A stretch of 64,000 bases of DNA from Candidatus Omnitrophota bacterium (GCA_043732705.1 JAYTHE010000032.1:66005-130004), one strand, 5' to 3'. Shown: positions 9,596 through 57,878, counted from the stretch's first letter. The notes: generated by a model from the letters alone, not told the origin. Numbers and translations are program-made.

Positions 9596-10056
9596 TGAAT
9601 ATTCAAAAAATTGCGTTAGCCTGTGATCACCGCGGCATTGCGATTAAAAATGAAATTATCGGTTATTTAAAGAAGCGCGGAATCGAAGCGCTTGATTTTG
9701 GGACCAATACGGAAGCTTCCTGCGATTATCCCGATTTTATTTTACCGGCCGCGGTTTCGCTCTCAAAAGGCGAATCGCAACGCGCGATCGGGATTTGCTA
9801 TACGGGTATCGGCAGTGTGATTGCTGCGAATAAGGTCAAAGGTGTGCGAGCGGCTTTGGTCGAAGATGTTCCTCGCGCCCGGTTGACGCGTCAGCATAAT
9901 GATTCCAATATGCTGATTCTTGCGTCAGGTTTTCATTCCAGTAACGAATTAATGCAAATTGTCGAAGCCTGGCTCGACACCGACTTCGAAGGAGGCCGTC
10001 ATGAGCACCGCGTTCGCAAAATCGAGTCCTATGAAAACAAACACATCGCTTCTTGA
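9595..10056 (+). CDS. rpiB: ribose-5-phosphate isomerase B (RpiB/LacAB family)
   Basis: [21 protein letters not shown]...; a good ATG at 9595 inside the longer track ORF. Confidence 0.8.
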
Positions 10057-36592: not shown

Positions 36593-36658
36593 AGAACCAT
36601 CCTTCGTTTTTAGTTTGTTTTGCGATCCGAGCATCATGGCTCGAAAGAAAGTAAAAAA

Positions 36659-38357: not shown

Positions 38358-38699
38358 ATGAATAATCCTGAAGCAAAGACACCGCTCGCCACCAAAGCAT
38401 CGCAATCAAATTTAAAGGATGTCGAAAAAGTTAACCGCAACGAAAAAGAAGCCGGATCTCGAGAAGATTGGGAGGGGGGCGCATCACGTCCAATGGACGC
38501 GATAGTTCCGGAGGAAAAACTTCCCAATAGCAGCTCCGCAAAAAATTTACAGGCTCAGGCTGAAAGTGTTCCTAAAACACCGAGTGGTGATAATGGGCCG
38601 CCCGAGAATCTGCAATCTCTCCCAACTCAAGATACGCATACAGTGAGTCCGGAACAAGAAGTTGAAAATAAGCCCAAGCGGCAGCGACTTCCTTTTTAA
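38358..38699 (+). CDS. intrinsically disordered hydrophilic protein, SREDWEGG / GPPxNLQSLPTQxTH family, paralog 1
   Basis: Low-complexity, highly charged; shares two blocks with 50468..51049. Confidence 0.55.
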   Translation: MNNPEAKTPLATKASQSNLKDVEKVNRNEKEAGSREDWEGGASRPMDAIVPEEKLPNSSSAKNLQAQAESVPKTPSGDNGPPENLQSLPTQDTHTVSPEQEVENKPKRQRLPF

Positions 38700-40241: not shown

Positions 40242-42545
40242 GTGTTAACCACTTTCTATTCTCAAATTTTACGCTTAATCCGTAAATGGATTTCAGGAAG
40301 AGAGTTTTTTCTTTCGGCCGTAATTTTGGTTTCTCTGCTTTCGGTGAATTCATGGCTTTCTTTCCGCAATATCAATCTCGTGCGCCATGACGCCGAATTA
40401 GTTATTCATACCCAAAAAGTAATTAACGCTCTTGAGGCGGCGCTTTCATTTGCAAAAGATGCGGAGACCGGGCAGCGAGGCTATCTTCTTACCGGCAAAC
40501 AATCCTATCTCGAACCGTATAATCATGCGGTACCGGCCATTTATGGGCAATTGGCGCTGCTGAAACAATTGACCCGTGATAATGCATCGCAGCAGAAACG
40601 CCTGGATGAATTTAAAGCGCGCATTGGATTAAGGTTGAAAGTGCTGGATGAAGTTATCAATGCACAAGAAGGTTTACGCTATCAGTTTACCCGTAAGACT
40701 TTATTGGGCGACCGCGGCAAAGTCGAGATGGACGCCTTGCGCCGGCAGGCCGCTACCATTGAAAAGGTAGAACGCGATTTGTTAGAGCAAAGAACGGAAC
40801 GCTCCACTGTCTCATACCACATCGCGCTTTTCACCAGTTTTCTGTCAAGTTCGATCGGGTTAGGCTTGCTTGTCGCGTTTCTTTTTCTTTTAAGGAAACA
40901 TTTAATTTCTAAAGACAAAGATATGGCCGCGATTTTTGAGCAGCACGAAAGATTTCGAATCACAATCGGAAGTATCGGCGATGCGGTTCTGACCACAGAT
41001 ACACAGGGCCGCGTTACATACTTAAATGAAATTGCGCAAAAATTGACAGGCTGGAAAGAAAAAGATGCTTTCGGGAAGCCTCTAGAGGTAGTTCTTCACA
41101 TTTTAAATGAAAGTTCCCGCCGTATTGTTGAAAGCCCCGCATATCAGGCGTTAAGAGAAGGCACCATTGTCGGGCTGGCTTATGGGACGCTTCTGATCGC
41201 GAAGGACGGAAAAGAAATTCAAATCGAGGACAGTGCCGCACCGATCCGCAATCAGCAAGGTGATGTTGTGGGGGTTGTGCTCGTGTTCCGGGATGTAACT
41301 GATCGTAAAAAATCAGAAGCTGTTTTACTCGAAAGCGAAAAGCGTTATCGACAGTTAATTCAAGGTCTGCCCGCAGCTGTTTATACCTGTGATGCTGACG
41401 GCTACATTATGCTTTATAACCCCGCAGCGGCTGTGCTTTGGGGCCGGGAACCCGAGTTGGGGAAAGAGCTGTGGTGCGGCTCGCATCGAATCTATAGGTC
41501 AAACGGAGAACCTCTCCCGTTAGAGCAATGCCCCATGGCCGTTGTTTTGGAAGGAAAAGAGCCGAAGCGCGGTCAGGAAATTATTATTGAAAGGCCCGAT
41601 GGTACGCGGCGGAATGTTCTACCTTATCCCCAGGCGATTCTTAATAAAGACGGAATTCTCATGGGTGCGATTAACATGCTTGTGGATATCACCGAGCGTA
41701 AAAAAGCAGAGCAAGATTTAATCCGCACGGCCAAAGAGCTTGCAGCTTCAAACACTGAATTAGAAAAAGCGAATATACAGCTTAAGAAATCGACGCATGA
41801 ACTTGAACTGGCAAATATAAGCCTAAAAAAACTCGATGAGATGAAAACGAATTTTATTGCGATCGCATCGCATGAACTCAAGACCCCTCTGACCGCGATG
41901 AAAGGTTTTTTAAGTTTAGTCATCGAAGGCGCGAACGGAAAGCTGCGAGCCGCACAAAAGGAAAGTTTACTTTTTGTAAAAGAAGGCAGTGATCGAATGC
42001 ACCGGCTGATTGACAGTCTATTGAATCTATCGAAAATGGAGCTTGGGCAAATGCCGATGAAAATGAGCGAGAAGGTAAGTGTTAAGAGAATTTTGAGCGA
42101 GACCGTGCGAACATTTCATAATTTAGCCGAAAAGAAGAGCATTTCAATTCAAGAGGAAGTCGAAAGTGATTTAAAAGAAGTTTGTGGCGACGAAGACCGT
42201 TTACGGGAAGTGTTTGATAATCTTGTTTCCAATGCTCTGAAATATACTCCACGTGGCGGAACTATTTGGATTCGAGCGAAAAATAATTCAAAAAAAGTAG
42301 AAATTAAAATTGAAGATACCGGAATTGGAATGAGAAAAGAAGATCTTTGTAAAATATTTGAACCTTTCCAGCACTTGAGGCGCAGCGGCTTGGAAGGCGA
42401 AGAAAGCACCGGATTGGGTTTAGCGTTAGTCAGAAAAATTATCGATGCGCATGGCGGAGAAGTTCAAGTTGAAAGCGTGCTCGGAAAAGGTTCGATTTTT
42501 ATGGTGCTGCTTCCGCAAAAAAATTTGATGGAGGCGGCGCGATGA
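40242..42545 (+). CDS. sensor histidine kinase: CHASE3 - TM - 2x PAS - HisKA - HATPase_c
   Basis: GTG start; CHASE3-like N-terminus, PAS blocks, H-box IASHELKTPLTAMKG, G-boxes. Confidence 0.85.
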   Translation: MLTTFYSQILRLIRKWISGREFFLSAVILVSLLSVNSWLSFRNINLVRHDAELVIHTQKVINALEAALSFAKDAETGQRGYLLTGKQSYLEPYNHAVPAIYGQLALLKQLTRDNASQQKRLDEFKARIGLRLKVLDEVINAQEGLRYQFTRKTLLGDRGKVEMDALRRQAATIEKVERDLLEQRTERSTVSYHIALFTSFLSSSIGLGLLVAFLFLLRKHLISKDKDMAAIFEQHERFRITIGSIGDAVLTTDTQGRVTYLNEIAQKLTGWKEKDAFGKPLEVVLHILNESSRRIVESPAYQALREGTIVGLAYGTLLIAKDGKEIQIEDSAAPIRNQQGDVVGVVLVFRDVTDRKKSEAVLLESEKRYRQLIQGLPAAVYTCDADGYIMLYNPAAAVLWGREPELGKELWCGSHRIYRSNGEPLPLEQCPMAVVLEGKEPKRGQEIIIERPDGTRRNVLPYPQAILNKDGILMGAINMLVDITERKKAEQDLIRTAKELAASNTELEKANIQLKKSTHELELANISLKKLDEMKTNFIAIASHELKTPLTAMKGFLSLVIEGANGKLRAAQKESLLFVKEGSDRMHRLIDSLLNLSKMELGQMPMKMSEKVSVKRILSETVRTFHNLAEKKSISIQEEVESDLKEVCGDEDRLREVFDNLVSNALKYTPRGGTIWIRAKNNSKKVEIKIEDTGIGMRKEDLCKIFEPFQHLRRSGLEGEESTGLGLALVRKIIDAHGGEVQVESVLGKGSIFMVLLPQKNLMEAAR

Positions 42546-42925
42546 AAAAGCATATTCTTATTGTCGAAGATGACTTTGCGATCGGCAAGCTCCTTCAAAT
42601 GTCTTTTACGCATGCAGGATTTACCGTTTCTTTGGCGCGCGATGAAGCCTCTTTTTGCGAGTTGGCGAAAAATACATCCCCCGATTTTATTTTGCTTGAT
42701 CTGATGATTAACAATCGAAAAAGCATCGAATTTTATGAGGCATTAGTTGAAGAAGGGTTGAATCCGCATATCCCGGTGATTGTTTTGACAGCGTCTGTCC
42801 AGGGATTGGTTTCTGTGAAAGGCCCCTCCGGAAAATCTTATCGGGCCTTCGGCAAGCCTTTCGAAACTAAAAACCTGATTGAATTAGTGGGTTCTTCTTT
42901 TTCAGTCAAGCCTTCGAAAGCCTAA
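42542..42925 (+). CDS. single-domain response regulator (receiver only), paralog family member
   Basis: ILIVEDDF...ILLDLMI...; ATGA overlap with the kinase. Confidence 0.75.
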   Translation: MKKHILIVEDDFAIGKLLQMSFTHAGFTVSLARDEASFCELAKNTSPDFILLDLMINNRKSIEFYEALVEEGLNPHIPVIVLTASVQGLVSVKGPSGKSYRAFGKPFETKNLIELVGSSFSVKPSKA

Positions 42926-43056
42926 AAAACCCGTGTAAAAGTGTCTCGTCTTTCGTACAGAATTCTTAAAAATCTGACACATTTCAGCCGCACAAAACAG
43001 CTCTTTTAAGAAATAATATTTTTGTTCCCAATAAGAAGCATGCGCAGTGGCCGAGC

Positions 43057-43072
43057 TGGCACTCCTGATGCT
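43057..43072 (+). promoter_or_regulatory. candidate sigma-54 promoter (TGGCAC-N5-ATGCT)
   Basis: cTGGCACtcctgATGCt, GG-N10-GC spacing correct; ~120 nt upstream of the ferritin-like gene. Confidence 0.4.
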
Positions 43073-43191
43073 ACTCTGATGTTGGGGTTTTCTCAAAGAA
43101 TGAGCTTCAGACGCTTGCCGATGGGGGCTAAAAATGAACAATGAAGATTGGGATTTAGAATAATTCAATTGAATATTATTCGAATTTTTAA

Positions 43192-43788
43192 ATGAAAAAG
43201 GAAAAAATGAAAAATAAAGGTTCTGATTTGGAGCAAAAATCAAAAAGCCGGTTTGTGATGGATGTAAAGGAAATCCGCCGCCGCGCCCGCAAACATGTCG
43301 AAGAAGGTGCTGTCACGGAAGGTTACGAAGGTGACCGCAAGACTATCTTAAAGCTGCTCAATGATGCGCTTGCGACCGAAATTATTTGTGTATTACGCTA
43401 CAAGCGCCATTATTTCATGGCGCAAGGCATTCATGCGAAACCGATTGCTGAAGAATTCCAGGAGCATGCCACTGAAGAACAGGCGCATGCCGACAGTATC
43501 GCGGAAAGAATTATGCAGCTGGGCGGTGAACCTGACCTGAATCCTGAAGGCTTGACTACCCGCAGCCACTCACAGTATGTGGAAGGCGAGTCTTTGCTTG
43601 ATATGGTTAAAGAAGATTTGGTTGCGGAAAGAATCGCGATTGATTCTTACAAAGAAATCATCGCCTATGTCGGCGGCAAAGACCCGACGACCCGCCGTCT
43701 TATGGAGGAAATTCTTTCGAAGGAAGAAGAACATGCGGATGATATGGCGGATATTTTGGCGGCCCTAGATCCGGCCAAAAAAATGTGA
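43192..43788 (+). CDS. bacterioferritin/ferritin-like di-iron protein
   Basis: Ferritin-like four-helix bundle with paired E..H ligand motifs (EIICVLRY...EEQAHADSIAERI). Confidence 0.65.
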   Translation: MKKEKMKNKGSDLEQKSKSRFVMDVKEIRRRARKHVEEGAVTEGYEGDRKTILKLLNDALATEIICVLRYKRHYFMAQGIHAKPIAEEFQEHATEEQAHADSIAERIMQLGGEPDLNPEGLTTRSHSQYVEGESLLDMVKEDLVAERIAIDSYKEIIAYVGGKDPTTRRLMEEILSKEEEHADDMADILAALDPAKKM

Positions 43789-43812
43789 CGGTAAAACGGT
43801 AAAGATTAATTT

Positions 43813-43998
43813 ATGGAATTGATTTTTGAGTGGATAGCGTGGTTTGCCTTGTTCTTGGGATGTATTTTTATTTTATGGAAACTGTACTTATTCACGACGT
43901 GGAACATTGAGAGAACTGTTTTTCTTGGCGGAATCGGCGCTTATCTGGGTTCGAAGTCAAAAAACGCGCGGAAGAAGCAAGCCGTGGCCGCGAAATGA
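43813..43998 (+). CDS. hypothetical small membrane protein (61 aa)
   Basis: Two hydrophobic helices; stop overlaps the GT4 start (ATGA). Confidence 0.3.
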   Translation: MELIFEWIAWFALFLGCIFILWKLYLFTTWNIERTVFLGGIGAYLGSKSKNARKKQAVAAK

Positions 43999-45266
43999 AA
44001 ATATTGATGGTGACGAACACCTATTTAAATGTGGTGGGTGGCCTTGAAAAATCAATCCAGTCTTTTACGCAAAAATTAAGAGAATTGGGACACAAGGTAT
44101 TGATCGCCGGTCCTGACTTTGTCGGCGAAGAAATCGGCGGCAGCAAGGGGGCTCATCCTTTAGCGGACAAATATGCGCCAGTGGTTTTTCCTTTTCGTGG
44201 GAAACTTGAAAAAATTATTGCTCAATTTAATCCTGATGTCATCCACGCCCACCATCCTTTTTTAATGGGAGAAATGGCTTTGCGCTTCTCGGCCTATTAC
44301 GCGCGGCCCGTTATTTTTACTTACCATATTATGTTCAATCAATACGCGCATTATTTACCGTCTGTGTCTTCGTGCCTTTCCGGAACTTTCTTGGTGGAAA
44401 TGGCTGCGGGATTTTGCAATCTTTCAACCCGGGTGATTGCGCCGAGCGAAAGCGTACGTAAAATTTTATGCGATCAAGGCGTTAAAAAACCAATTGATGT
44501 CGTTCCAACCGGAGTTGATATCGCAAAGTTTTCGCGCGGGAACCGTGAAAAAAAGAGAAGAGAACTTGGTTTATCAAAAGAATCGATTCTGCTCGGTTAT
44601 GTGGGGCGTCTCGCGCCCGAGAAAAACCTTGAATTTTTGACAGCTCAGGTTGCACAGTTAATGAACACAAATAAAAATGTTCACTTTCTTGTCGTTGGGA
44701 AAGGTCCTTCCGAAAAAGATTTGGAGAAAGCCTTTAGCCATATGGATATATTGCCGCGTCTTCACTTTTTGGGTGCGCTTCAAGGGCAGGATTTGGTGGA
44801 TTGCTACCATGCAATGGACGTGTTTGTGTTTGCGTCCAAAAGCGAAACTCAAGGTTTGGTTCTCTGCGAAGCGATGGCAGCGGGAGTGCCTGTGGTAGCT
44901 TTGGATGCGCCGGGAGTCCGTGAAGTTGTCAAGGATTTTGAAAATGGCCGGCTAATCTCCGGCGGACATGAAGAGGAGTTTCAATCCGCCTTGGTGTGGT
45001 GCGTGAGCCAGGAGGGCAGGAAGCTTATTCAGTTGAAACAAAACGCCCGGGAAACCGTCAACGCTTTCGGACTTGAAATTTGCGCGGTTCGCGCGCTGGA
45101 GACATATCGTTCAGCTATGCAAGATTATTCTTGTCTTAAAAATGCTCATAAAAACAGAGAGCTAAAGTTATGGCAGTGTTTTCGGATTGAATTGAAAATA
45201 GCGGGTAATTTTCTCCGCTCTTTTTTTCGTGCAGTGAGTAAGACGCTTTTTAAACAAGCAGCCTGA
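43995..45266 (+). CDS. GT4-family glycosyltransferase, paralog 1
   Basis: MKILMVTNTY..VGGLEKSIQ N-terminus; E-x7-E region ...FASKSETQGLVLCEAMAAGVPVVA. Confidence 0.8.
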   Translation: MKILMVTNTYLNVVGGLEKSIQSFTQKLRELGHKVLIAGPDFVGEEIGGSKGAHPLADKYAPVVFPFRGKLEKIIAQFNPDVIHAHHPFLMGEMALRFSAYYARPVIFTYHIMFNQYAHYLPSVSSCLSGTFLVEMAAGFCNLSTRVIAPSESVRKILCDQGVKKPIDVVPTGVDIAKFSRGNREKKRRELGLSKESILLGYVGRLAPEKNLEFLTAQVAQLMNTNKNVHFLVVGKGPSEKDLEKAFSHMDILPRLHFLGALQGQDLVDCYHAMDVFVFASKSETQGLVLCEAMAAGVPVVALDAPGVREVVKDFENGRLISGGHEEEFQSALVWCVSQEGRKLIQLKQNARETVNAFGLEICAVRALETYRSAMQDYSCLKNAHKNRELKLWQCFRIELKIAGNFLRSFFRAVSKTLFKQAA

Positions 45267-45276
45267 GGAGGGCATA

Positions 45277-45402
45277 ATGAAAAGGTTTATGTTGGTTTTA
45301 ATCATGATTCTTTTTGTGGGAGCATTCAATGGTTGTCATAGCGGAACGATGCGTGGAGTCGGTTCGGACATTTCGAGGGTCGGAGACCACTTGCAGAAAT
45401 AA
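45277..45402 (+). CDS. entericidin-like small lipoprotein, paralog 2 (41 aa)
   Basis: MKRFMLVLIMILFVGAFNGCHSGTMRGVGSDISRVGDHLQK; RBS gaggaggg. Confidence 0.7.
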   Translation: MKRFMLVLIMILFVGAFNGCHSGTMRGVGSDISRVGDHLQK

Positions 45403-45484
45403 ATGAACAGATTTATTGCCTGCAAGCTAAACGCAAGAGTACCTTTTATTTCTTTTTAGGAAACAGTACAATATGTTTTAACTT

Positions 45485-45895
45485 ATGGATCAAAAGAAAA
45501 GTGCTCCCGATGCGGGAGTGGTTAAACCCAGAGTTCTTGTCGTGGATGACGAGCAGTCCATGCGGCGTCTTTTGTGCCATACTCTCTCTCTCTCCGGCTT
45601 TAATATTTCAACTGCAGCTAATGCGGCAGAATTTCGTGAGCAAGTTTTTATTCAAAAACCAGAGGTTATTATTCTCGATATTTTGCTGGGTGACCATAAC
45701 GGTCCCGAAGTTTATTTGGAACTGCTGGATGAGGGCTTGGATTCAAATATTCCCGTCATTTTTCTTTCGGCACTGATTGAAAAAAGGTGGATGCCCAAAT
45801 CGATTGAGAGTAACCCGCGCCATGCATTTATCAGCAAGCCGTTTGAGTACCAAGAACTAATACTCAAATTGCGAGAGTTTGCGGCGCTTAAATAA
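45485..45895 (+). CDS. single-domain response regulator (receiver only), paralog family member
   Basis: VLVVDDEQ...IILDILLGDHNGPEVY...IPVIFLSAL. Confidence 0.75.
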   Translation: MDQKKSAPDAGVVKPRVLVVDDEQSMRRLLCHTLSLSGFNISTAANAAEFREQVFIQKPEVIILDILLGDHNGPEVYLELLDEGLDSNIPVIFLSALIEKRWMPKSIESNPRHAFISKPFEYQELILKLREFAALK

Positions 45896-48779
45896 TAAGT
45901 GGGGGATTGCTTTTACCGTGCCAAAGCAGAGTTCTTTTTTAAATCGTCTCCGTTTGAGTAACCTTCTTATTCCTCGGAAGCTGGGCCTGATTGTGGCTAT
46001 TTTTTCGCTTATCATTTGCGCCCTGCTTTCAGTCAATCTCTTTGGAATGGGGGTTCTCTCCGATGTTCGTGCTTATGTTGCCGGTGAAGGAATATGGTCA
46101 AAATCACAAAAAGAAGCCGTTTATGCATTGATGCGGTATGTGATTTTTTATCAGGAAAAAGATTATCAGAATTATTTGGACCATCTCAAAGTTCCTCTGG
46201 GGGACCGTAAAGCCTTAATCGAGCTTTCAAAGCCCAACCCTGACTTTCTCGTTGTGGATGCCGGCTTTATTGAAGGTCAAAATCATCCGCGTGATGTGCG
46301 TGGCATGGGGTATTTATTTAAGCGTTTTTATTTTATTTCTTATATTCGTGATGCCATTCAAGCCTGGAAAGAAGCGGATCAGCTGCTGAATGAATTGATT
46401 CGAGCGGGAGAAGAAGTCAGGAAATATGTCCGGTCCGGAAATGTCACTGAAGAGAAAACGACGCAGTTTTTAGAACGCATAGATAAAATCAATAATACCT
46501 TGGCGCCGCTTGAAGATTCATTTTCTTATCGGTTAGGGGAAGGTGCACGGTGGCTTGTCAGCCTGTTGGTTTGTGTGATGTTCGGGGTTACAGGTATACT
46601 GTTGATTCTAGGAATTATTATCGCAAATTTTATTGCGCGCCAGCTGATCCAGGAAATATACCGGCTTAGAAACGCGGCGGCCAAAATTGCCGAGGGGGAT
46701 TACAGTCAGCCGATAGAAAATCACACCTTGGATGAAGTCGGGGACCTTGCCCGGAGCTTTCAGCAAATGGCGGCTCAGCGACAACACGCGGAAAGAGTTA
46801 AAAATGAATTTTTTGCGACCGTTTCTCATGAACTTCGTACGCCCTTAACATTAGTGCTGACACCGCTTGAATCGCTTTTAATGGGCGAATATGGCCCGTT
46901 ATCGGAACCCGCGCAGCGGATTTTGGGAACGATGCACAATAACGCGATACGACTGCTTCAGATGGTGACCGGGCTGCTTGATTTCTCAAAATTTGAAGCC
47001 GGGCGGATGGAAGTTAAGCGTGAAGATACCGATATCATCGGGGTTACGCAGTCGATTCTCGATGATTTTACGGCCATTGTCAGCCAGAAAAAAATAAAAG
47101 TTCGGCTGAGCGCAAATCAGCCCTCTATTTCGGTTCTTATGGATCGTTATTTTTACGAGCGAATTTTATTTAATCTTCTTTCCAATGCGGTTAAATTTAC
47201 ACCCGAAGAAGGTGAAATTTCTGTTGCGCTTGAACTGCGCGGTGAATATTTGCGCTTGGTGGTTTGTGATACTGGCATTGGCATCTCGGAAGAAAATCAA
47301 AAAATCCTGTTTGAAAAATTTAAACAGCTTGAAGGCGCATCAACACGGCGCTTTGAAGGAACTGGCCTGGGGCTTGCTTTAGTCAAAGAATTTTCCGAAC
47401 TTCTTGGCGGACAGGTTTTGGTTCACAGCGAAGCCGGAAAAGGATCGACATTTACCGTGGAGTGTTTTGCCCCGGCCGCAGCGTCTGTGGCAAAGATCGA
47501 AACTGTGCGTCCCAAAAGAAAACTGGTTCAGCAATTTCCGGTGAATACGGAGTTATCACTCATTTCCGATTCAGTTGATAGGAAGGAATTACCCAAACTT
47601 CTGATTGCTGAAGATAATCCCGAGCTGGCGTTTTATTTGTCCGAGCAGATGCAGGATATTGCGCGCTTAAAAATCGCGAAAGACGGGGAAGAAGCATTGA
47701 AGCTTGCCGAAGAATGGCTGCCTGATCTTGTTCTTTCTGATGTCATGATGCCCAAATTAGACGGAATCGCCCTATGCCGGGCGATTAAAAGCCATCCGAA
47801 AATGGCTTACATTCCGGTTATTTTGCTGACCGCATTGACTTACCGGGATGCTCTTTTAAAAGGATGGGAAGCGGGCGCGGACGAGTATTTGTTTAAACCT
47901 TTTCACCCCACTGAACTTTTAACACGGGTTAAATCCGTGCTTGAAAATTGCAAAGAGCGCCGTGAAACACAAATTGCGCTTAAAGAGTCACACGACCAGC
48001 TTGAAGTCAAAGTCCGCGAGAGAACCGAGGAGCTTCTCGGGGCGAATGAGCGTTTAAAAGAGCTGGATGAATTAAAAACACAATTTATTTTGACCGCGTC
48101 GCATGAGCTCAGGACTCCGCTAACGTCGATTAAGGGCTATGTTGAAATGGTTTTGTACGGTGAGGCGGGCGCGCTCAATGACGAACAAAAAGAGTTTTTG
48201 GGATATGTCAAGGACTCCACCGACCGTTTGCAGCGTTTACTGCGCGAACTTTTGGATATTTCAAAAATAGAATCCGGCGGAGTAGCCATGCATCGGGAAT
48301 TTACTGATATGCGGATTTTAATTAAAGAAGAGCAGGCTCTTTTTAAAGCGCAGGCGCTGGATAAAAAAATTCAGATTCTGATGGATGTTGATCCGGAGTT
48401 AAAGTTTATTTTTTGTGATTCGGATAAAATTCGCGAGGTTTTGGATAATTTGCTCAGCAATGCCATAAAATATACACCCGCAAAAGGGCAAATTAAAATT
48501 TTCGCGCAAAACCAGGAGCATGGAATTTTAATTGGTGTTCAGGATAATGGCATTGGAATTAAAAAGAAAGACCACCGCCTGATTTTTGAACCTTTTCAAC
48601 ATTTGGGAAAGAATGGAACGAATGCCTCAGAGGAAAGTACGGGTTTGGGTTTAACGCTTGTTGAAAAAATTGTTGAAGCGCATGGCGGGCAAGTTCAGGT
48701 CCAAAGCGAAGAGGGTCAAGGCGCGCTTTTTACTGTAAACTTACCTTTCGATATGAATGAAAAAAAACAACCGGAGTAA
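45879..48779 (+). CDS. hybrid sensor kinase with two transmitter modules: sensor-TM-HAMP-HisKA-HATPase-REC-coiled coil-HisKA-HATPase
   Basis: Two H-boxes (ATVSHELRTPLT; LTASHELRTPLTSIKGY), two G-box sets, and an internal receiver (LLIAEDNPE...LVLSDVMMPKLDG). TTG/GTG start uncertain. Confidence 0.85.
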   Translation: MRRLNNKWGIAFTVPKQSSFLNRLRLSNLLIPRKLGLIVAIFSLIICALLSVNLFGMGVLSDVRAYVAGEGIWSKSQKEAVYALMRYVIFYQEKDYQNYLDHLKVPLGDRKALIELSKPNPDFLVVDAGFIEGQNHPRDVRGMGYLFKRFYFISYIRDAIQAWKEADQLLNELIRAGEEVRKYVRSGNVTEEKTTQFLERIDKINNTLAPLEDSFSYRLGEGARWLVSLLVCVMFGVTGILLILGIIIANFIARQLIQEIYRLRNAAAKIAEGDYSQPIENHTLDEVGDLARSFQQMAAQRQHAERVKNEFFATVSHELRTPLTLVLTPLESLLMGEYGPLSEPAQRILGTMHNNAIRLLQMVTGLLDFSKFEAGRMEVKREDTDIIGVTQSILDDFTAIVSQKKIKVRLSANQPSISVLMDRYFYERILFNLLSNAVKFTPEEGEISVALELRGEYLRLVVCDTGIGISEENQKILFEKFKQLEGASTRRFEGTGLGLALVKEFSELLGGQVLVHSEAGKGSTFTVECFAPAAASVAKIETVRPKRKLVQQFPVNTELSLISDSVDRKELPKLLIAEDNPELAFYLSEQMQDIARLKIAKDGEEALKLAEEWLPDLVLSDVMMPKLDGIALCRAIKSHPKMAYIPVILLTALTYRDALLKGWEAGADEYLFKPFHPTELLTRVKSVLENCKERRETQIALKESHDQLEVKVRERTEELLGANERLKELDELKTQFILTASHELRTPLTSIKGYVEMVLYGEAGALNDEQKEFLGYVKDSTDRLQRLLRELLDISKIESGGVAMHREFTDMRILIKEEQALFKAQALDKKIQILMDVDPELKFIFCDSDKIREVLDNLLSNAIKYTPAKGQIKIFAQNQEHGILIGVQDNGIGIKKKDHRLIFEPFQHLGKNGTNASEESTGLGLTLVEKIVEAHGGQVQVQSEEGQGALFTVNLPFDMNEKKQPE

Positions 48780-48790
48780 TCAATAAAGTT

Positions 48791-50149
48791 ATGAATAAAA
48801 CTGTTCTTGTTGTGGATGATGACAGTCGAATCGCGAATCTCATTTCGACTCGCTTAAAGAAGCAAGGATATTTGCCCGTGATTGTTGAAGATGGCAACAG
48901 CGCGATTGAATGGGTCGAGCGTAATGAAGCGGCATTGATTATGTTGGATGTCCGGCTTCCAGATATTAACGGTGTTGATGTGTTAAGACAAATCATCAAA
49001 AAGAAACCGGGTCTATTTGTAATTATGATTAGTGCGCATGCGGACGTTCAAAACGCGGTGGAATGTATCAAAATCGGAGCCACGGACTTTCTTGAAAAGC
49101 CGTTTGAATTTCCTACCTTTGACGCAAAAGTGAAGCAGATTTTTCAGCAGCTGGGATTAAAGGCCGAGGTTGCCGCTTTAAAACAGGAATTAGGAATTAC
49201 TTATAAAGATAAAAGTTTAATCGGAAAAAGCCCCGCGATGATTAAGGTTTTTCAATCGATTGGCATCGCGGCAAAAAGTGAAGCCAGTGTCTTGATTCAC
49301 GGAGAAAGCGGAACAGGAAAAGAGCTTGTTTCAAGAGCAATTCATTTTAACGGGACACAAAAACAGGGCCCTTTTATGGCGGTGAATTGCGGAGCCATTC
49401 CGGAAAACCTTCTTGAAAGTGAATTATTTGGACATGAGAAGGGATCTTTTACGGGCGCGGTAGGCCGTAAGCTGGGAAAATTCGAGGAAGCGCAAAACGG
49501 AACTATATTTTTAGATGAAATCGGGGAAATGCCACTGTCATTGCAGGTTAAATTGCTGCGGGTGCTGCAAGAGCGAGAAATCGTCCGCGTGGGCGGAACG
49601 GTCTCCATTCCCATTCATGCCCGCTTTATTACGGCGACAAACCGCGATTTAAAGAAAATGGTGCAAGAAGGGTTGTTCCGCGAAGATCTTTATTACCGGA
49701 TCAATGTATTTCCGATTCGTTTGCCGCCCTTACGCGAAAGAAAAGAGGATATTACAGATCTTTTCCGCCACTTCGTAAACCGGCATAGCGAAGGCAAAGC
49801 GTCGGTTAAGACAGATGAAGGCGCGTTAAGAAGACTGGAAGAGTATGACTGGCCCGGAAATATCCGCGAGCTAGAAAATTTTGTCGAACGTCTTTTGCTT
49901 TTATTGGGAGAAAAAAATCACATTACCGAAAAAGATATCGATGCTATGGATGGATTAAGCGATGCTCCTGCTTCAGAAAAAGCCGAAGCGCCTAAAGAAA
50001 GAGCTCAGGTGTTGGGCGAGACGGAGCGGGCAATTCTTGAAAAGGCATTGCAAGACGCCAATGGTAATATTGCTAAGGCTTCTAAGCTTGTTCAGATGAG
50101 CCGTGATTCTTTTTATCGGAAGATGAAAAAATATTCAATTGCCCGGTAA
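48791..50149 (+). CDS. sigma-54-dependent response regulator (NtrC family: REC - AAA+ - Fis-type HTH)
   Basis: GESGTGKE Walker A, GSFTGA (GAFTGA-type) motif, C-terminal HTH. Confidence 0.9.
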   Translation: MNKTVLVVDDDSRIANLISTRLKKQGYLPVIVEDGNSAIEWVERNEAALIMLDVRLPDINGVDVLRQIIKKKPGLFVIMISAHADVQNAVECIKIGATDFLEKPFEFPTFDAKVKQIFQQLGLKAEVAALKQELGITYKDKSLIGKSPAMIKVFQSIGIAAKSEASVLIHGESGTGKELVSRAIHFNGTQKQGPFMAVNCGAIPENLLESELFGHEKGSFTGAVGRKLGKFEEAQNGTIFLDEIGEMPLSLQVKLLRVLQEREIVRVGGTVSIPIHARFITATNRDLKKMVQEGLFREDLYYRINVFPIRLPPLRERKEDITDLFRHFVNRHSEGKASVKTDEGALRRLEEYDWPGNIRELENFVERLLLLLGEKNHITEKDIDAMDGLSDAPASEKAEAPKERAQVLGETERAILEKALQDANGNIAKASKLVQMSRDSFYRKMKKYSIAR

Positions 50150-50467
50150 GTCTTATAACAAGAACGGCTGTTATCTCCATTTGTGCTTAAAACGCGCTAT
50201 GCGATGCGTTAAAGTCCGCTATTGCTAAGCTGGATGGGGCCGCGCTGAATTTTCCAGCCTGCATGGCTTCCCAAGGCTTTTCCTTCCTAGTCCGACAATT
50301 GCAAAAAACCGTCAGAGCCCTCTGACACTATTTTCTTAATTGAGATTTTTTCAAAAGACGTTTTTTTCTTAAGTTGTTTATCTGTATGAAGATATGACTT
50401 TGGCATGCGCCGTGGATATACAGAGTCAACGGAATGAAATACGTGAGGGAAAAAGGAGGGCTTGTTT

Positions 50468-51049
50468 ATGGAAAAGAGTCATTACGAACAAATCAAAAAT
50501 AATAATAATTTCAATTCATCGACGAGGGGATCCAAACGCAGACCACCGATGCAAAGTGAGTTTGATGAGCCTAAATTATCCTATTGCGATGTCCCTCAGC
50601 CGGCTGTAAGTGCTTGCGGGATAGCTCAATCGACAAATGCGCAAGCCTGTGATCAAACAGCTTATTCACGCTCGCAAGGAACTTCTGATCAGACTTTTAA
50701 AAATAAAAAAGATCAGAAAGACGCTGTGTCCCGTGAAGACTGGGAAGGCGGCGGGTCGCGTCCCGCGGCAGCATTCTCAGACGAAATGTTTCCCCATAAT
50801 AACCCTGCAAATGACTTACAGACACAAGCTGACAGTGTTCCAAAAGCTAAATATGGCGACTTTGGGCCGCCTAAAAATCTTCAATCGCTTCCGACCCAAA
50901 ATACGCATGAGCTGGCTGCGGAAGAGGAGCTTGATGATGAAGTGCGTGTAAAAGCAGCGAAGAACTCCGGAGAAGAAGTCCATTGGAACGAAAGAGCGGA
51001 CCGCCTTAAAAAGCGGGGAGAAGATTATAGAGGGCGTCGCAGTGCTTAG
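50468..51049 (+). CDS. intrinsically disordered hydrophilic protein, SREDWEGG / GPPKNLQSLPTQNTH family, paralog 2
   Basis: Shares SREDWEGGGSRP and GPPKNLQSLPTQNTH blocks with 38358..38699; RBS aaaggaggg. Confidence 0.55.
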   Translation: MEKSHYEQIKNNNNFNSSTRGSKRRPPMQSEFDEPKLSYCDVPQPAVSACGIAQSTNAQACDQTAYSRSQGTSDQTFKNKKDQKDAVSREDWEGGGSRPAAAFSDEMFPHNNPANDLQTQADSVPKAKYGDFGPPKNLQSLPTQNTHELAAEEELDDEVRVKAAKNSGEEVHWNERADRLKKRGEDYRGRRSA

Positions 51050-51155
51050 CATTACGTCCTCGGCGGAGAGTCAAGCTCCGCGTCAACCGAAGGAGATGGC
51101 GGGCTTCAAAAGCAGTAGTCCCGCCGCTCTTCTCGGAATAGTTAAGGAGGCTGTT

Positions 51156-51545
51156 ATGAATGAACGGATTTTAGTCATCGAAAACAGAGGGCCTAGCTAT
51201 CAAATTTTGAAGGATAAGTTGGAAGAAAAAGGCTGCGTTGTTTTAACGGCTCAAAACGAACACGAGTTTTGGGGGCATGCTTGCGAGACGAATGTTGAAT
51301 TAGTTCTTTTTGATATTTGCCTCAAGAACCGGCTCAGTTCCGAGGTTTACGCGGCAATTTTAAACTTTCAACAAAGCCGAAAAATCCCGGTCATTTTTAA
51401 GACCGGGATGACTGACCAGGACGAACACGGAGCCATGCTGTATGACGAGAACTATATTTTTTTTCCGGAACCGGTTGGTTTTGAGCGTCTCTATGTAGAA
51501 ATACAAAAACTACTTAATCAAAGACAGCTGGCCCATGCTGCCTAA
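51156..51545 (+). CDS. receiver-like single-domain protein with partly degenerate acidic pocket (EN in place of DD)
   Basis: MNERILVIENRGPS...LVLFDICL...IPVIFKTG; RBS aaggagg; paralogous to the other stand-alone receivers. Confidence 0.55.
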   Translation: MNERILVIENRGPSYQILKDKLEEKGCVVLTAQNEHEFWGHACETNVELVLFDICLKNRLSSEVYAAILNFQQSRKIPVIFKTGMTDQDEHGAMLYDENYIFFPEPVGFERLYVEIQKLLNQRQLAHAA

Positions 51546-51557
51546 GAGAAGGAAACA

Positions 51558-52043
51558 ATGAAAAAAATTTTAGTGGTGGATGATGAATGGGCCATTCTTG
51601 AACTTTTACGGATCAAACTTACAAAAAAGGGGTTTGATGTGATTACCGCGAGCAATGAAAAAGAGTTTTTTGAACAGGTTTTTGAAAATAAACCGGATTT
51701 GATTATTTTGGATATTTGGCTCGGGAACGAAGGCGGCGGAACGAAGCTTTATGACGTGGCGCTTGACGGAGGGCTTGATCCGGATGTTCCGGTTATTTTT
51801 ATGAGCGCACTTGTAGAAGAAGGTACGCCGCCCAAAAGAGCGTCCAAGGGAGGGCGTTTTGCTCTGTACGGCAAACCATTCGATTTTAATTTTTTGTTGG
51901 AAGACATTTATTGTTTAACGGGGGTTGAGTCGGGGTTGAATTCGGCGGAAGTTGACAGAGATAGGATTGGGAAGGCTGCAAATTTAGGGAAATATAAAAG
52001 TGGGTCGAATGGCGGGCCAGCCCCGCAGCTAAAAACCGGATAA
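51558..52043 (+). CDS. single-domain response regulator (receiver only) with Gly-rich C-terminal tail
   Basis: ILVVDDEW...IILDIWLGNEGGGTKLY...VPVIFMSAL. Confidence 0.75.
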   Translation: MKKILVVDDEWAILELLRIKLTKKGFDVITASNEKEFFEQVFENKPDLIILDIWLGNEGGGTKLYDVALDGGLDPDVPVIFMSALVEEGTPPKRASKGGRFALYGKPFDFNFLLEDIYCLTGVESGLNSAEVDRDRIGKAANLGKYKSGSNGGPAPQLKTG

Positions 52044-52898: not shown

Positions 52899-53240
52899 AT
52901 GCAGACACACACTAAGGTAAATGAGAAAAAAGACAAAATTCATGATGCTCTTGAGCTGCTTAATGATGCGGCAAAAGAGAAAAAGGATGAAGTTTTTGAA
53001 GTGATCAACACTAAGTATGAACATGTCCGGGATATGTTCGCAGGCGCTGCCGAAAACGGACAGGCCATTGCAAAGGAAGCCAAGAAGCAGCTTTCAAAAA
53101 CGCTTCAAACGGAAAAGATAAAAATTAAACAAGTCGCGGGCGATCTGAATAAGAAAGTTCACAGAAGCCCATGGGCCTATTTAGGCGGCGCGGCATTAAG
53201 TTCTTTTGTCGTTGGAATTTTACTGGCGCGCAAAAAATGA
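52899..53240 (+). CDS. DUF883 (ElaB/YqjD/YgaM) membrane-anchored stress protein, paralog 1
   Basis: C-terminal PWAYLGGAALSSFVVGILLARKK matches the ElaB tail anchor. Confidence 0.75.
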   Translation: MQTHTKVNEKKDKIHDALELLNDAAKEKKDEVFEVINTKYEHVRDMFAGAAENGQAIAKEAKKQLSKTLQTEKIKIKQVAGDLNKKVHRSPWAYLGGAALSSFVVGILLARKK

Positions 53241-53952: not shown

Positions 53953-54294
53953 ATGACAACTCATTCGAAAGAAAATGAAAAGAAAGACAAAATTCACGAG
54001 GCATTGGAATTGTTGAATGAAGCCGCCAAAGAAAAAAAAGACGAGGTGTATGGCGTGATTAATTCCAAATATGAGCATCTTCGTGAAATGTTTGCCGGCG
54101 CGGTTGAGACAGGGCAGGACTTTGCGGACGACGCGAAGAAAAATATTTCCAAAACACTTTCAGCGGAAGAGAAGAAATTGAAACAAATCGCCGCTCAATG
54201 GGATAAGGAAGTTCGTAAAAATCCTTGGACTTATATCGGCGGAGCGGCGCTTGGCTCGCTTTGTTTGGGGCTTTTACTGGGCCGGAAGAAATAG
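53953..54294 (+). CDS. DUF883 (ElaB/YqjD) membrane-anchored stress protein, paralog 2
   Basis: ~60% identical to 52899..53240; PWTYIGGAALGSLCLGLLLGRKK tail. Confidence 0.75.
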   Translation: MTTHSKENEKKDKIHEALELLNEAAKEKKDEVYGVINSKYEHLREMFAGAVETGQDFADDAKKNISKTLSAEEKKLKQIAAQWDKEVRKNPWTYIGGAALGSLCLGLLLGRKK

Positions 54295-54744: not shown

Positions 54745-54903
54745 ATGGCAACGTCAACAATTTTACTCATCGTGCTTATAGTATTACTGATTGGCGGATT
54801 GCCGACATGGCCGCATAGCAAGAGTTGGGGATATTATCCTGCCGGCGGAATAGGGACTGTACTTCTGATTGTTTTGATTTTGGCATTGATGGGCCGAATC
54901 TAA
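54745..54903 (+). CDS. DUF3309-family small membrane protein (52 aa)
   Basis: MATSTILLIVLIVLLIGGLPTWPHSKSWGYYPAGGIGTVLLIVLILALMGRI. Confidence 0.6.
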   Translation: MATSTILLIVLIVLLIGGLPTWPHSKSWGYYPAGGIGTVLLIVLILALMGRI

Positions 54904-54941
54904 CATTTTTCAAAACGAAGTACAAAACAGCAGGAGGCTTT

Positions 54942-55469
54942 ATGTTGACTAAGATCGAAGAGAAGAAAACTGAGGTTGCGGTTGGCATTGCAGTCGACAA
55001 GCAGGTTGATATTGCGCTTCCCAAAAATGATCGTAAGGAGCTGGCGCATGCTCTCTCGCTTATATTGGCCGATACGTACGCGCTTTATTTGAAAACTCAA
55101 AACTTTCATTGGAATGTGAAGGGTGCACGTTTTCCATCGTTGCACATTCTTTTTGAAAGCCAATATCTCGAATTAGCGGCTGCGGTGGATTTAATCGCAG
55201 AACGGATCCGGGCGCTTGGATGTCTTGCCCCGGCAAGCTTCAGCGAGTTTGCGAAATTGACCTGTCTAGAAGAGGGCAATTCTCAAATTCCTGCAGCAGA
55301 AATGGTCGCGGTCCTCATGCATGATCACGAACGAGTAGCGCAAAGTATGCGTGCTATAGTGCCTAGGGCAGAGAAGACACATGATCACGCTTCCGTTGAC
55401 CTTCTTTCACAAAGAATATCAACGCATGAAAAGACAGCATGGATGCTTCGCAGCACAAACGAAACCTAA
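54942..55469 (+). CDS. dps: DNA starvation/stationary phase protection protein Dps
   Basis: LKTQNFHWNVKG...HILFESQY ferroxidase-centre region; RBS caggagg before the ATG at 54942. Confidence 0.85.
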   Translation: MLTKIEEKKTEVAVGIAVDKQVDIALPKNDRKELAHALSLILADTYALYLKTQNFHWNVKGARFPSLHILFESQYLELAAAVDLIAERIRALGCLAPASFSEFAKLTCLEEGNSQIPAAEMVAVLMHDHERVAQSMRAIVPRAEKTHDHASVDLLSQRISTHEKTAWMLRSTNET

Positions 55470-55562: not shown

Positions 55563-57878
55563 ATGTGGAAAAAATGGCTTCCATGGCGTTTCTTCATTAG
55601 GGCACTTGCGCGCAAAAAGGGTTTTCTTGACCCCATTGCTTTTTTTTCCAAACTCCAAAGTTTTGGTCAGCCTTCCGAAGTGACCATGCCGATTGAAATT
55701 GTGCGTCTTGCGACAATATTAATTGCGCGCGGCTCGCTGAATGTTGTCGCGATTCAACATAACCTGGATTGGAATTGGCCTTATTGGGTCGTGCGCCAAT
55801 TTGATCCAAAAGATGTATCGTTTATTCCGCGCGCATTTTCACTGACTCATATTAATTTAACGCATCGTAATTGGACCGCTGTCGGTATTCCTGATCTGAG
55901 TTTGTATCCGATTGTTGACCCGCGAGGATTGCTGACCCCTTTTTTAGACGGCTGGTCTCTGGATGCTTGGGTGGTCCAAGGCGAAGGTGATCAAAACCTG
56001 ATTCCTGCGTATTTAAAAACAACTACTCAGAAATGGCATCTGGAAAAAACCCCCTCAATTACGACTCACTCAAACCATCATCATCTGAAACTTAATTCGC
56101 ATATCAGTGTTGAAAAAAGCAAAGAGGGGCCTTATTGCATGATGACTGTTGAAGCGAGTTCGGCCTCAGCCGCTTGGCTTGTGATTTCATTGCGTCCCCT
56201 TAACCCCGAGGGGGTGAGTGAAATCAGAAATATTACGCTCCTTGATCAAGGGTTAACGTGGCAGGTTAATAAAAAGGAGCGGATTTATTTTAATGAAGTT
56301 CCTGACAAGCATTATTTCTCTGAATTTCGAGAAGGCGACGTTTACCGTAAAGTTATGGCCGCAAATAAACACCCCGAAAAACTTTCGGCACAAAATGCCG
56401 AATCTGTTGAATGCTCTTCGGGAATGGCGACCGCGGCAGCCATGTTTCGTATTCCGGAACACGGACAAAGAAAAATCGAAATTCAAATTCCTTTGACGAT
56501 CTCTCTGATCAGGAAGCCCGTTCCGCAGAGTTTTATTGTGGCTTCAAGTGGCGAAGCGGAACAAATTTGGTCGGAAGCTCTACGGGGCCATACTAAACTT
56601 CAGGTTGCGGATAAACAGACGCAGGCCGTTTATGATGCTGCGGTTTATGCCATGATTCTACATACGCCCGGTATCGATGCTTTTCCCGGGCCGTATACCT
56701 ATAAACATTTTTGGTTCCGTGACGCGGCTTTTATTGTGAATGCTCTTTTGGGCGCAAACTTGATTGCAAGAGCCGAGAAAATTCTAGATCACTTTCCGGC
56801 TCGCCAAAGACTTACGGGTTACTTTTGTTCACAAGACGGCGAATGGGACTCCAACGGACAAGTGCTTTGGATTTACCGCCGGTTTTGTGAGTTAACAGGT
56901 ACTTTGCCCAAGGCTGCATGGAAAGATTCAATAAAAAGAGGCGCAGAATGGATGAAACGTAAAAGATTGCCCGAAGATCTTGAACAGCCGCATGCCGGAC
57001 TTTTTCCTCCCGGCTTTAGCGCCGAACATTTGGGTCCCAACGACTATTATTATTGGGATGATTTTTGGGGAGTAGAAGGATTTTTTTCCGCCGCTTACCT
57101 CATGCAGGGCTATCAAGATTCCCAAAGCGCGCAACAATATGAAAATGAGGCCGGCCATTTTGAAACTTGTCTCCTTCGCAGCCTAGATCAAAGTGAAGCA
57201 CGACTTAAGACAAAAGCCATGCCTGCATCACCTTATCGCCGTCTGGATACCGGAGCGATTGGTTCTTTGGCGATTGGTTATCCGCTCACTTTTTGGGAAC
57301 CTGATGATTTGCGTGTTATGCAGACAGTTGAATATCTTTTGAAAAATCATTTTATCGAACATGGATTTTTCCATGACATGAGTCACTCGGGTATTAATCC
57401 GTATCTGACATTAACAGTCGCGCAAACTCTATTGAGAAATTACGACCCGCGTTACGCGGATATCATGAGGCGTATTCAAAAGCTGGCATCGCCGACAGGA
57501 CAATGGCCCGAAGCCGTTCATCCTCAGACTTTGGGCGGCTGTATGGGAGATGGCCAGCATATCTGGGCCGCAGCGGAATGGATTCTCATGATTAAAAATT
57601 GTTTTGTACGCGAAGAAAAAGAAAGACTTATTCTTTGTTCGGGAGTTTTGCCGGAATGGTATGAGGGCGGCAAAAAAGCTTCCTTCGGAGTGACTCCCAT
57701 TTCACAAGGTTTAATTTCGGTGGAGCTTTTTTCAGAAGGTACCGGAGTGCGAGTGAGCTGGAAAGCCGAATGGCGCGGAGCGGTTCCGACGATTGAGGTC
57801 CGGCTTCCCGGTTACACAATGATCAACGTCAATTCCGGCGAGACCACGGTATTGCTGGCAAAGGAAAAGCATTCATGA
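55563..57878 (+). CDS. glycoside hydrolase, (alpha/alpha)6 six-hairpin superfamily (GH15/GH63/GDE-like)
   Basis: 771 aa; HFWFRDAAF-type motif and Trp/acidic-rich C-terminal half; exact family not assignable. Confidence 0.5.
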   Translation: MWKKWLPWRFFIRALARKKGFLDPIAFFSKLQSFGQPSEVTMPIEIVRLATILIARGSLNVVAIQHNLDWNWPYWVVRQFDPKDVSFIPRAFSLTHINLTHRNWTAVGIPDLSLYPIVDPRGLLTPFLDGWSLDAWVVQGEGDQNLIPAYLKTTTQKWHLEKTPSITTHSNHHHLKLNSHISVEKSKEGPYCMMTVEASSASAAWLVISLRPLNPEGVSEIRNITLLDQGLTWQVNKKERIYFNEVPDKHYFSEFREGDVYRKVMAANKHPEKLSAQNAESVECSSGMATAAAMFRIPEHGQRKIEIQIPLTISLIRKPVPQSFIVASSGEAEQIWSEALRGHTKLQVADKQTQAVYDAAVYAMILHTPGIDAFPGPYTYKHFWFRDAAFIVNALLGANLIARAEKILDHFPARQRLTGYFCSQDGEWDSNGQVLWIYRRFCELTGTLPKAAWKDSIKRGAEWMKRKRLPEDLEQPHAGLFPPGFSAEHLGPNDYYYWDDFWGVEGFFSAAYLMQGYQDSQSAQQYENEAGHFETCLLRSLDQSEARLKTKAMPASPYRRLDTGAIGSLAIGYPLTFWEPDDLRVMQTVEYLLKNHFIEHGFFHDMSHSGINPYLTLTVAQTLLRNYDPRYADIMRRIQKLASPTGQWPEAVHPQTLGGCMGDGQHIWAAAEWILMIKNCFVREEKERLILCSGVLPEWYEGGKKASFGVTPISQGLISVELFSEGTGVRVSWKAEWRGAVPTIEVRLPGYTMINVNSGETTVLLAKEKHS

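Follow-up and report, generated by a model that had tools for sequence, protein, structure and literature searches.

Old paralogues of a single-domain receiver subfamily, including a conserved pseudo-receiver, beside sensor kinases of a Candidatus Omnitrophota bacterium

Single-domain response regulators, pseudo-receivers, receiver-only (Rec-only) proteins lacking helix alpha4 and kinases with branched outputs are all established elements of two-component signalling. The genes described here lie in a stretch of 64,000 nucleotides from Candidatus Omnitrophota bacterium (GCA_043732705.1, JAYTHE010000032.1:66005-130004), which we call the window and from whose first letter positions are counted; among them are four genes for stand-alone receivers, designated R1 to R4 and listed below. 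R1, R2 and R4 are found near sensor kinases, and R3 adjoins its sister copy R4. What is new is the delineation of the subfamily to which the four belong, its constant link to a single kinase core, and a conserved tandem of a stand-alone pseudo-receiver and a receiver. We hold with moderate confidence, assigning partners by gene order, that R1-R4 are four old paralogues, that R1 and R4 are each wired to a cognate kinase, and that R3 would serve as a modulator, independent of normal phosphorylation, directed at R4. Related loci and proteins are cited by L and P numbers, respectively.

42542-42925, plus strand: R1, 127 aa, single-domain receiver, active site intact
45485-45895, plus strand: R2, 136 aa, single-domain receiver, active site intact, directly upstream of the kinase HK2
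51156-51545, plus strand: R3, 129 aa, stand-alone pseudo-receiver
51558-52043, plus strand: R4, 161 aa, single-domain receiver, active site intact, starting 12 nt after R3

Regulators of the FATGUY type, such as Sma0114, SdrG and MrrA, pair with HWE or HisKA_2 kinases, whereas the kinases adjoining the R1-R4 family carry HisKA (PF00512). The former are regulators of Alphaproteobacteria; the R1-R4 family is metagenomic, with Omnitrophica-named members and no visible phosphotransferase partner. Rec-only proteins without an ordered alpha4 are known (Sma0114, SdrG, 3nhm and 3cg4, to which the relay receiver of CckA can be added), and they have been tied by the authors to phosphotransfer roles for which the alpha4-beta5-alpha5 switch face is dispensable (PMC9981736). 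With Sma0114, SdrG, MrrA and the CckA receiver, the family has in common stand-alone or phosphotransfer-type receivers, intact phospho-acceptor chemistry and, as proposed here, action via protein-protein contacts; the irregular beta4-beta5 segment of those proteins is only predicted for the family, from models of R3 and R4. FATGUY regulators have PFxFATGY (PMC9981736), whereas the R1-R4 family has PVIF[IM][ST]AL, and R3 PVIFKTGM, the exposed Tyr being gone; membership of the FATGUY group was rejected on this motif.

A pseudo-receiver has been defined as a receiver lacking any one of five catalytic residues (PMC12632262). In WhiI/BldM and CmrRST, as with R3, a pseudo-receiver is found alongside a phosphorylatable partner (PMC12632262), and the model that suggests itself is a role in a heterodimer or as a modulator; WhiI, BldM and CmrT, unlike the receiver-only R3 and R4, have output domains that bind DNA. 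R3 is not a member of the aspartate-less class of receivers, as it retains the Asp, which some R3 orthologues do not. Osp is, like R3, a stand-alone receiver-like protein and regulates a hybrid kinase by direct binding, not as an ordinary phospho-acceptor (PMC9430884), but the constant genomic partner of R3 is an R4-type receiver rather than a kinase, and kinship between the two can be seen only at the level of the receiver fold. RedCDEF (PMC2755868) and branched systems of one kinase and two regulators are comparable to the cluster around HK2, in which a kinase is likewise encoded with a transcriptional regulator and single-domain receivers. As in RedCDEF, several two-component proteins of the cluster would work as one circuit, with a putative direction of phosphate flow; the components are not homologous in detail, and HK2 has two full kinase cores per polypeptide.

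Four paralogues of one subfamily

The four receiver open reading frames (ORFs) named in a preliminary description of the window are all present, and the Pfam search returned PF00072 (response regulator receiver, CheY-like; gathering cut-off 30.2 bits) as the sole match of each, with no output domain. The scores were 54.4 bits for R1, 63.8 for R2, 52.1 for R4 and 33.4 for R3, the last barely over the cut-off. Lacking output domains, R1-R4 must, we infer, exert their outputs through protein-protein contacts. The C-terminal tail of R4 (approximately 40 aa) is variable among homologues and of low confidence in the structural model. No che genes are found among the ORFs in 36-56 kb, and a CheY-type chemotaxis role was ruled out by gene context, the partners being HisKA-type sensor kinases.

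When each of R1-R4 was compared by blastp with all ORFs of the window, its top three non-self matches were the other three. R2 and R4 are 46% identical (E 1e-29), R1 and R4 35% (E 3e-20), R1 and R2 33% (E 1e-17), and R3 is 28-31% identical to R1, R2 and R4 (E 1e-7 to 4e-11), whereas every match between R1-R4 and the other three receivers of the window (those of an NtrC-type activator, the hybrid kinase and a NarL-type regulator) had an E value of at least 5e-6. A family hidden Markov model (HMM) was built solely from database homologues of R4, the window sequences being left out; it scored R4 at 192 bits, R2 at 132, R1 at 95 and R3 at 88, against 56 for the NtrC-type receiver, 41 for that of the hybrid kinase and 33 for the NarL-type one. 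The generic Pfam receiver model gives the opposite ranking. In a neighbour-joining tree (Poisson distances, 200 bootstraps), R1-R4 and their relatives form a single clade with the other receivers outside it (80% bootstrap value). Within this clade, an R1 group (R1 of the window, W_R1, with P0273 and the copy in L088) and an R3 group of 13 sequences each have 92% bootstrap support and the core R4 group 100%; R2 of the window (W_R2) clusters with its L001 orthologue at 100%, nested within a wider R4-like clade.

Judged from these comparisons, R1-R4 are old paralogues of one single-domain response regulator subfamily, not recent local duplicates. They belong to four older orthogroups, and three of the four keep their place beside a particular kinase. 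The preliminary description had proposed that the four are paralogous beyond the generic receiver fold, and within the 64-kb window, to which the comparison with arbitrary receivers was confined, they do resemble one another more than they resemble other receivers. The shared core that it quoted holds in part: a family-specific core exists, but the quoted motif describes chiefly R2 and R4, and R1 and R3 share only some of it.

It is hardly credible that R1-R4 are instead arbitrary CheY-like receivers sharing a generic fold, with R3 a decaying pseudogene. PDB searches by sequence and by fold do return ordinary receivers (PleD, YycF, PhoP, RR468, DivK and Spo0F), and none from the R1-R4 subfamily, but the family HMM and the tree set the four apart from the other receivers of the window, and no che genes lie nearby. 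Orthologues of R3, moreover, occur in several genomes, and R3 has both a strong ribosome-binding site and a ratio of nonsynonymous to synonymous divergence (pN/pS) well below 1. The notion of arbitrary receivers and a dead gene is refuted by blastp, the family HMM, the tree and the pN/pS of R3.

A database search with R4 returned approximately 100 stand-alone homologues of 120-165 aa (E < 1e-20). Members of the subfamily abound in metagenomes; those with a name, few in number, come from metagenome-assembled genomes of Candidatus Omnitrophica or Verrucomicrobiae. Its consensus reads ILVVDDE..I.ELLR.KL...GF.V.TA.N..EF......KPDLIILDIWL.N..GT..Y..LL..GFD..VPVIFITALVE...P....G..YALYGKPFDF. The complete DD-D-[ST]-K set is found in all 99 of the closest R4-like homologues, and the active sites of the R1 and R2 groups are intact as well; R1 has the complete set as E, D, D, T, K, and R2 and R4 each have it as D, D, D, S, K. 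A pattern scan of a genome collection matched generic receivers (the best among the matches listed was 40% identical) and was unusable for counting paralogues per genome or for taxonomy. We found nothing relevant in the literature on Omnitrophota two-component systems, and no description of the R1-R4 subfamily.

AlphaFold models of R4 and R3 (mean predicted local distance difference test, pLDDT, 84.7 and 82.7) both have a receiver fold with five strands and four helices. The beta4-beta5 segment, at the position of alpha4, is modelled as coil in the two proteins (pLDDT about 80-85), and in R4 it holds two Pro and three Gly. R3 and R4 are thus predicted to have a receiver fold in which helix alpha4 is replaced by a loop.

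A missing alpha4, reported for Sma0114, SdrG and the relay receiver of CckA (PMC9981736) and likewise seen in the R3 and R4 models, would suit phosphorelay intermediates of the Spo0F, MrrA or SdrG kind, in which phosphate passes from a kinase to an alpha4-less receiver, a His-phosphotransferase and a terminal regulator, with several kinases converging or branching. The clustering of several kinases and receivers in an island of stress-related flavour would also agree with such an arrangement. We consider it quite improbable here, given that no Hpt, Spo0B-like or ChpT-like gene occurs among the ORFs of at least 80 aa in 36-56 kb, and no Hpt-like domain in the Pfam listings of related loci (a partner elsewhere in the genome being possible). 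The FATGUY motif is absent from the family, and the partner kinases are of HisKA type, not HWE or HisKA_2. As no Hpt/Spo0B-like phosphotransferase was found, a classical His-Asp-His-Asp relay would have to do without a visible middle component.

R3, a conserved pseudo-receiver

In R3 the DD pair is replaced by E-N and the conserved Lys by Glu (EPV instead of KPF), while the phospho-acceptor Asp (in LFDIC) and the Thr are kept, so that its active-site residues read E, N, D, T, E and the five-residue catalytic set is incomplete. The preliminary description had correctly reported the EN substitution, overlooking the Glu for Lys, and had suggested that one of the four might be a pseudo-receiver. 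R3 is such a protein under the definition of PMC12632262, since by its sequence two of the five catalytic residues (the second acidic residue and the Lys) are gone. Having lost the Lys that binds phosphate and the second of the acidic metal ligands, R3 most likely works independently of normal phosphorylation.

A word-indexed search with R3 found 3 proteins and was superseded by a full HMM scan, in which 1.84 billion representative proteins yielded only about 8 further R3-type clusters with scores of at least 98 bits. At least one catalytic lesion is present in 10 of 13 R3-like proteins, the other three being intact, as opposed to none of 99 R4-like proteins. The phospho-acceptor Asp itself has been lost in P0126 (to Glu) and in P0129, P0131 and the L092 copy (to Asn), and P0126 also has Glu for Lys. 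The lesions differ by branch: the second acidic position and the phosphosite can each be Asn, the Thr can be Ala, and the Lys can be Glu, His or Gln. The R3 orthogroup has lost catalytic residues repeatedly. R3-type proteins nonetheless have conserved motifs of their own: EFW, D[IV]CLK, LLDF, TTGL, DENY.FF and PV.FE.L..EI.

The start codon of R3 (ATG at 51156) is preceded, 6 nt upstream, by the Shine-Dalgarno sequence AAGGAGG; an alternative, longer R3 ORF begins with GTG at 51042. Between R3 and its L001 orthologue, pN is 0.151 and pS 0.727, as compared with 0.091 and 0.604 for R4 and its own L001 orthologue, the ratios being only rough because synonymous sites are near saturation. These values indicate that R3 is clearly under purifying selection and evolving somewhat faster than R4. 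The Shine-Dalgarno sequence, the pN/pS well below 1 and the tandem arrangement with an R4-type gene show R3 to be functional rather than decaying.

This tandem, with an R3-type gene directly upstream of an R4-type gene, is found in the window and in L001/L002, L003, L086 and L092. R3 arose from the same family as its sister, and would most likely act by binding or modulating a partner, independently of normal phosphorylation. Its most probable target would be R4, the alternative being the kinase; R4 is favoured because it is the only constant neighbour of R3 and because alpha1 of R3 has diverged. The pairing would follow the WhiI/BldM-type heterodimer logic discussed in PMC12632262. The conserved surface of R3 consists of the beta3-alpha3 loop, the beta4-beta5 linker and alpha5, and alpha1, the usual kinase-docking helix, has strongly diverged from that of R4 in the R3 subclade of the window.

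The alternative target deserves separate consideration, as Osp provides a precedent by binding the transmitter domain of CckA and inhibiting its kinase activity (PMC9430884), and R3 is conserved in the cluster of HK2 in the window, L001 and L003. R3 could in the same manner dock on the dimerization and histidine phosphotransfer (DHp) domain of HK2 and block either autophosphorylation or the access of R4 and NtrC. We consider this improbable. Apart from the divergence of alpha1, the R3+R4 tandem goes with a single-core HAMP kinase in L092, and in L086 it has no kinase within 10 kb; since the tandem persists in both loci, the constant neighbour of R3 is R4 and not a given kinase.

R3 ends in -AA, and an Ala-Ala C-terminus is found in 9 of 14 R3-type proteins (R3-type proteins include the window copy at 51156-51545, P0125-P0133 and the L003 copy at 9601-9990) versus 2 of 99 R4-type proteins (p = 1.7e-8 by a Fisher test that ignores shared ancestry). 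C-terminal Ala-Ala is a common ClpXP degron (PMC11034885). The conservation of this terminus suggests the hypothesis that proteolysis of the ClpXP type may control how much R3 is present. The internal DENY motif of R3-type proteins, together with their -AA ending, also recalls ClpXP degrons.

Kinase partners and the HK2 cluster

The genes that are relevant to the wiring of R1, R2 and R4 are the following (domains from Pfam):

40242-42545, plus strand: HK1, CHASE3-PAS-PAS-HisKA-HATPase, non-hybrid (no receiver)
45879-48779, plus strand: HK2, hybrid kinase, HAMP-HisKA-HATPase-REC-HisKA-HATPase
46779-47513, 47601-47933 and 48063-48779 (approximate): core 1, internal receiver and core 2 of HK2, respectively
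48791-50149, plus strand: NtrC-type sigma-54 activator, REC-AAA+-HTH_8

The preliminary description placed the receivers next to hybrid kinases, which is right for HK2 only, HK1 having no receiver. The start of R1 overlaps the HK1 stop by 4 nt (ATGA), and in L088 the gene of P0274, a relative 47% identical to R1, is joined to the end of a CHASE3-PAS kinase gene by an overlap of the same length. Owing to this overlap and to the same pairing in another genome, R1 can be taken as the cognate regulator of HK1, translationally coupled to it, and HK1 would phosphorylate R1. HK1 has a catalytic core that is a paralogue of core 2 of HK2, sharing 48% identity with it and 32% with core 1; as the HK1 core is closer to core 2, the HK1-R1 pair looks like an older duplicate of the HK2-core-2/R4 cassette described next.

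HK2 has an H-box in both of its DHp domains, and its two-core architecture recurs in L001, L003 and L091. Core 2 is orthologous to the cores of ordinary single-core kinases, for which reason a further kinase-plus-receiver module was apparently inserted ahead of this core. The simpler kinases adjoining R4-type receivers in L087, L090 and L004 have cores 57-79% identical to HK2 core 2. The order of small receiver, two-core kinase, NtrC-type activator, (acidic ORF), R3-type and R4-type receiver is found in L001 and L003 as well as in the window.

To avoid ascertainment through the receiver, metagenome contigs were scanned with HK2 core 2 as the seed, which yielded 11 orthologous loci at 53% identity or more. 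In all eight that extend far enough, an R4-type receiver (150-192 bits with the family profile) lies downstream, no more than about 2.3 kb past the kinase stop (the largest distance being that in L098). An NtrC-type gene stands between kinase and R4-type receiver in L092, L093, L095, L097 and L098, an order also seen in the window, L001, L003, L004 and L087, whereas L090, L091, L099 and L100 have the R4-type receiver right after the kinase and no second regulator nearby. The R4-type receiver is consequently the steadier companion of HK2-core-2-type kinases. By gene order, the core-2-type kinase core and the R4-type receiver are a conserved cassette, with NtrC a frequent second output. The sensor parts attached to this core vary, being HAMP only, PAS, ETR1_N-GAF-PAS or a second core module; the ETR1_N (ethylene-receptor-like) domain, followed by GAF and PAS, is seen at the N-terminus of the kinases in L096, L097, L098 and L004. 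In L090 (3088-13083), a HAMP kinase and an R4-type receiver are followed by a GAF-ANTAR protein and then by nitrite and nitrate reductase-like genes; as the ANTAR protein is without a receiver of its own, it might be a trans target of the stand-alone receiver.

HK2 core 2 would accordingly phosphorylate R4 as its primary cognate regulator and probably the adjacent NtrC-type activator, which is the probable transcriptional output of this core. The output of HK2 would then be branched, with transcription controlled via NtrC and a protein-protein or phosphate-buffering branch via R4, which would act through protein contacts or possibly buffer NtrC~P. Of the branched phosphorelay envisaged in the preliminary description, it is the branching that finds support, an NtrC-type and an R4-type regulator following the core in ten loci (window included); the relay lacks its Hpt/Spo0B-like protein in 36-56 kb.

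The same description also mentioned a phosphate sink, in which R4, and perhaps R2, would mainly drain phosphoryl groups from HK2, shaping the level and kinetics of NtrC~P with no output of their own. Phosphate-sink roles of single-domain regulators have been discussed in the literature (e.g. PMC5964349), and this explanation fits the ten loci in which the order kinase, NtrC, R4-type receiver is kept (the window, L001, L003, L004, L087, L092, L093, L095, L097 and L098). It is less suited to a receiver that is more constant than NtrC beside the core-2-type kinase, and in L090, L091, L099 and L100, with no second regulator nearby, a sink would not account for the whole role of the R4-type receiver. 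A pure sink finds partial support; we regard it as rather unlikely and prefer R4 as a cognate regulator of HK2 core 2.

Several points weigh against the wiring that we propose. Every partner assignment in it rests on gene order and co-occurrence, functional statements in general deriving from sequence, predicted structure and gene order, and the binding partner of R3 (R4, the kinase or another molecule) is likewise inferred; the kinase-less R3+R4 pair of L086 and the neglect of shared ancestry in the test on C-terminal Ala-Ala must be counted here too. The missing alpha4 is a prediction, and few parts of the family are less conserved than the beta4-beta5 linker, its two ends excepted. A scan of the window for the -24/-12 sigma-54 consensus gave no credible site, so that NtrC cannot be linked to the R3-R4 operon or to the stress genes. 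As to R2, an orthologue 82% identical to it occupies the matching position in L001, but L003 holds a non-family receiver in this position upstream of the two-core kinase, and family receivers are also found upstream of single-core kinases in L093-L095. A role of R2 as partner of HK2 core 1 was rejected on these two grounds, and R2 is best described as a further paralogue upstream of HK2 whose kinase partner is not assignable from gene order.

A scan for sigma-70 promoters and terminators gave counts near chance. About 160 nt past the NtrC stop, at 50311-50326, lies a weak terminator-like GC-rich hairpin with a T-run, which may divide an R2-HK2-NtrC unit from an ORF-R3-R4 unit; such sites are no commoner in the region than in shuffled sequence.

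Neighbouring genes and significance

Between the NtrC-type gene and R3 lies one further ORF:

50462-51049, plus strand: acidic low-complexity ORF with the motif SREDWEGGGSRP, no Pfam match

A paralogue at 38358-38699 (47% identity, E 4e-28; common motif SREDWEGGxSRP, no Pfam match) follows the NarL-type regulator just as the 50462-51049 copy follows the NtrC-type one, and L001 has an orthologue in the same position as the latter (9197-9544). Downstream of R4, 52899-53240 and 53953-54294 encode 113-aa paralogues that are 65% identical and have a hydrophobic C-terminal segment; they have no Pfam match above threshold and are reminiscent of ElaB/YqjD-type tail-anchored proteins.

The cluster is surrounded by an island with a flavour of stress protection (35798-36637 on the minus strand, 43192-43788, 54825-55469 and 55563-61830), whose content comprises a triple-BON protein, two ferritin-like proteins, GT4 glycosyltransferases, a conserved 771-aa protein without Pfam match and a phosphodiesterase/EEP protein. 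The block of 771-aa, GT4 and EEP genes is syntenic in L001 and L087. In other loci a DPBB_1 (RlpA-like) gene adjoins the family receivers, always on the minus strand (L004 10420-10794, L086 8884-9336 and L088 4728-5177). P0135 combines a family receiver, a hydrophobic segment and DPBB_1 in one protein, which may hint at a functional link or be a gene-calling artefact. Just downstream of the conserved cluster in L003 (11684-20420) is a gene call of 5881 residues that runs past the locus end, with PEP-utilizers_C, GlnD_UR_UTase and methyltransferase matches.

A more ambitious reading would make the R3+R4 tandem a dedicated heterodimeric switch of pseudo-receiver and receiver, with the abundance of the pseudo-receiver set by the Ala-Ala degron, and the alpha4-less family a hub joining several kinases (one of them two-core) to the stress-protection island, as an independent invention of an MrrA/SdrG-like stress hub. 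We put this forward as speculation and think it improbable in its entirety.

The wiring that we favour, with R1 and R4 each tied to a cognate kinase and R3 directed at R4, does not overturn current views of two-component signalling and is a tidy, unsurprising example of known wiring. Its value lies elsewhere. A common, unannotated subfamily tied to one portable kinase core offers a handle for annotation, the named members coming from an uncultured phylum. The R3 lineage, which ranges from intact to two-lesion members beside a phosphorylatable sister, provides a natural series for how pseudo-receivers switch.

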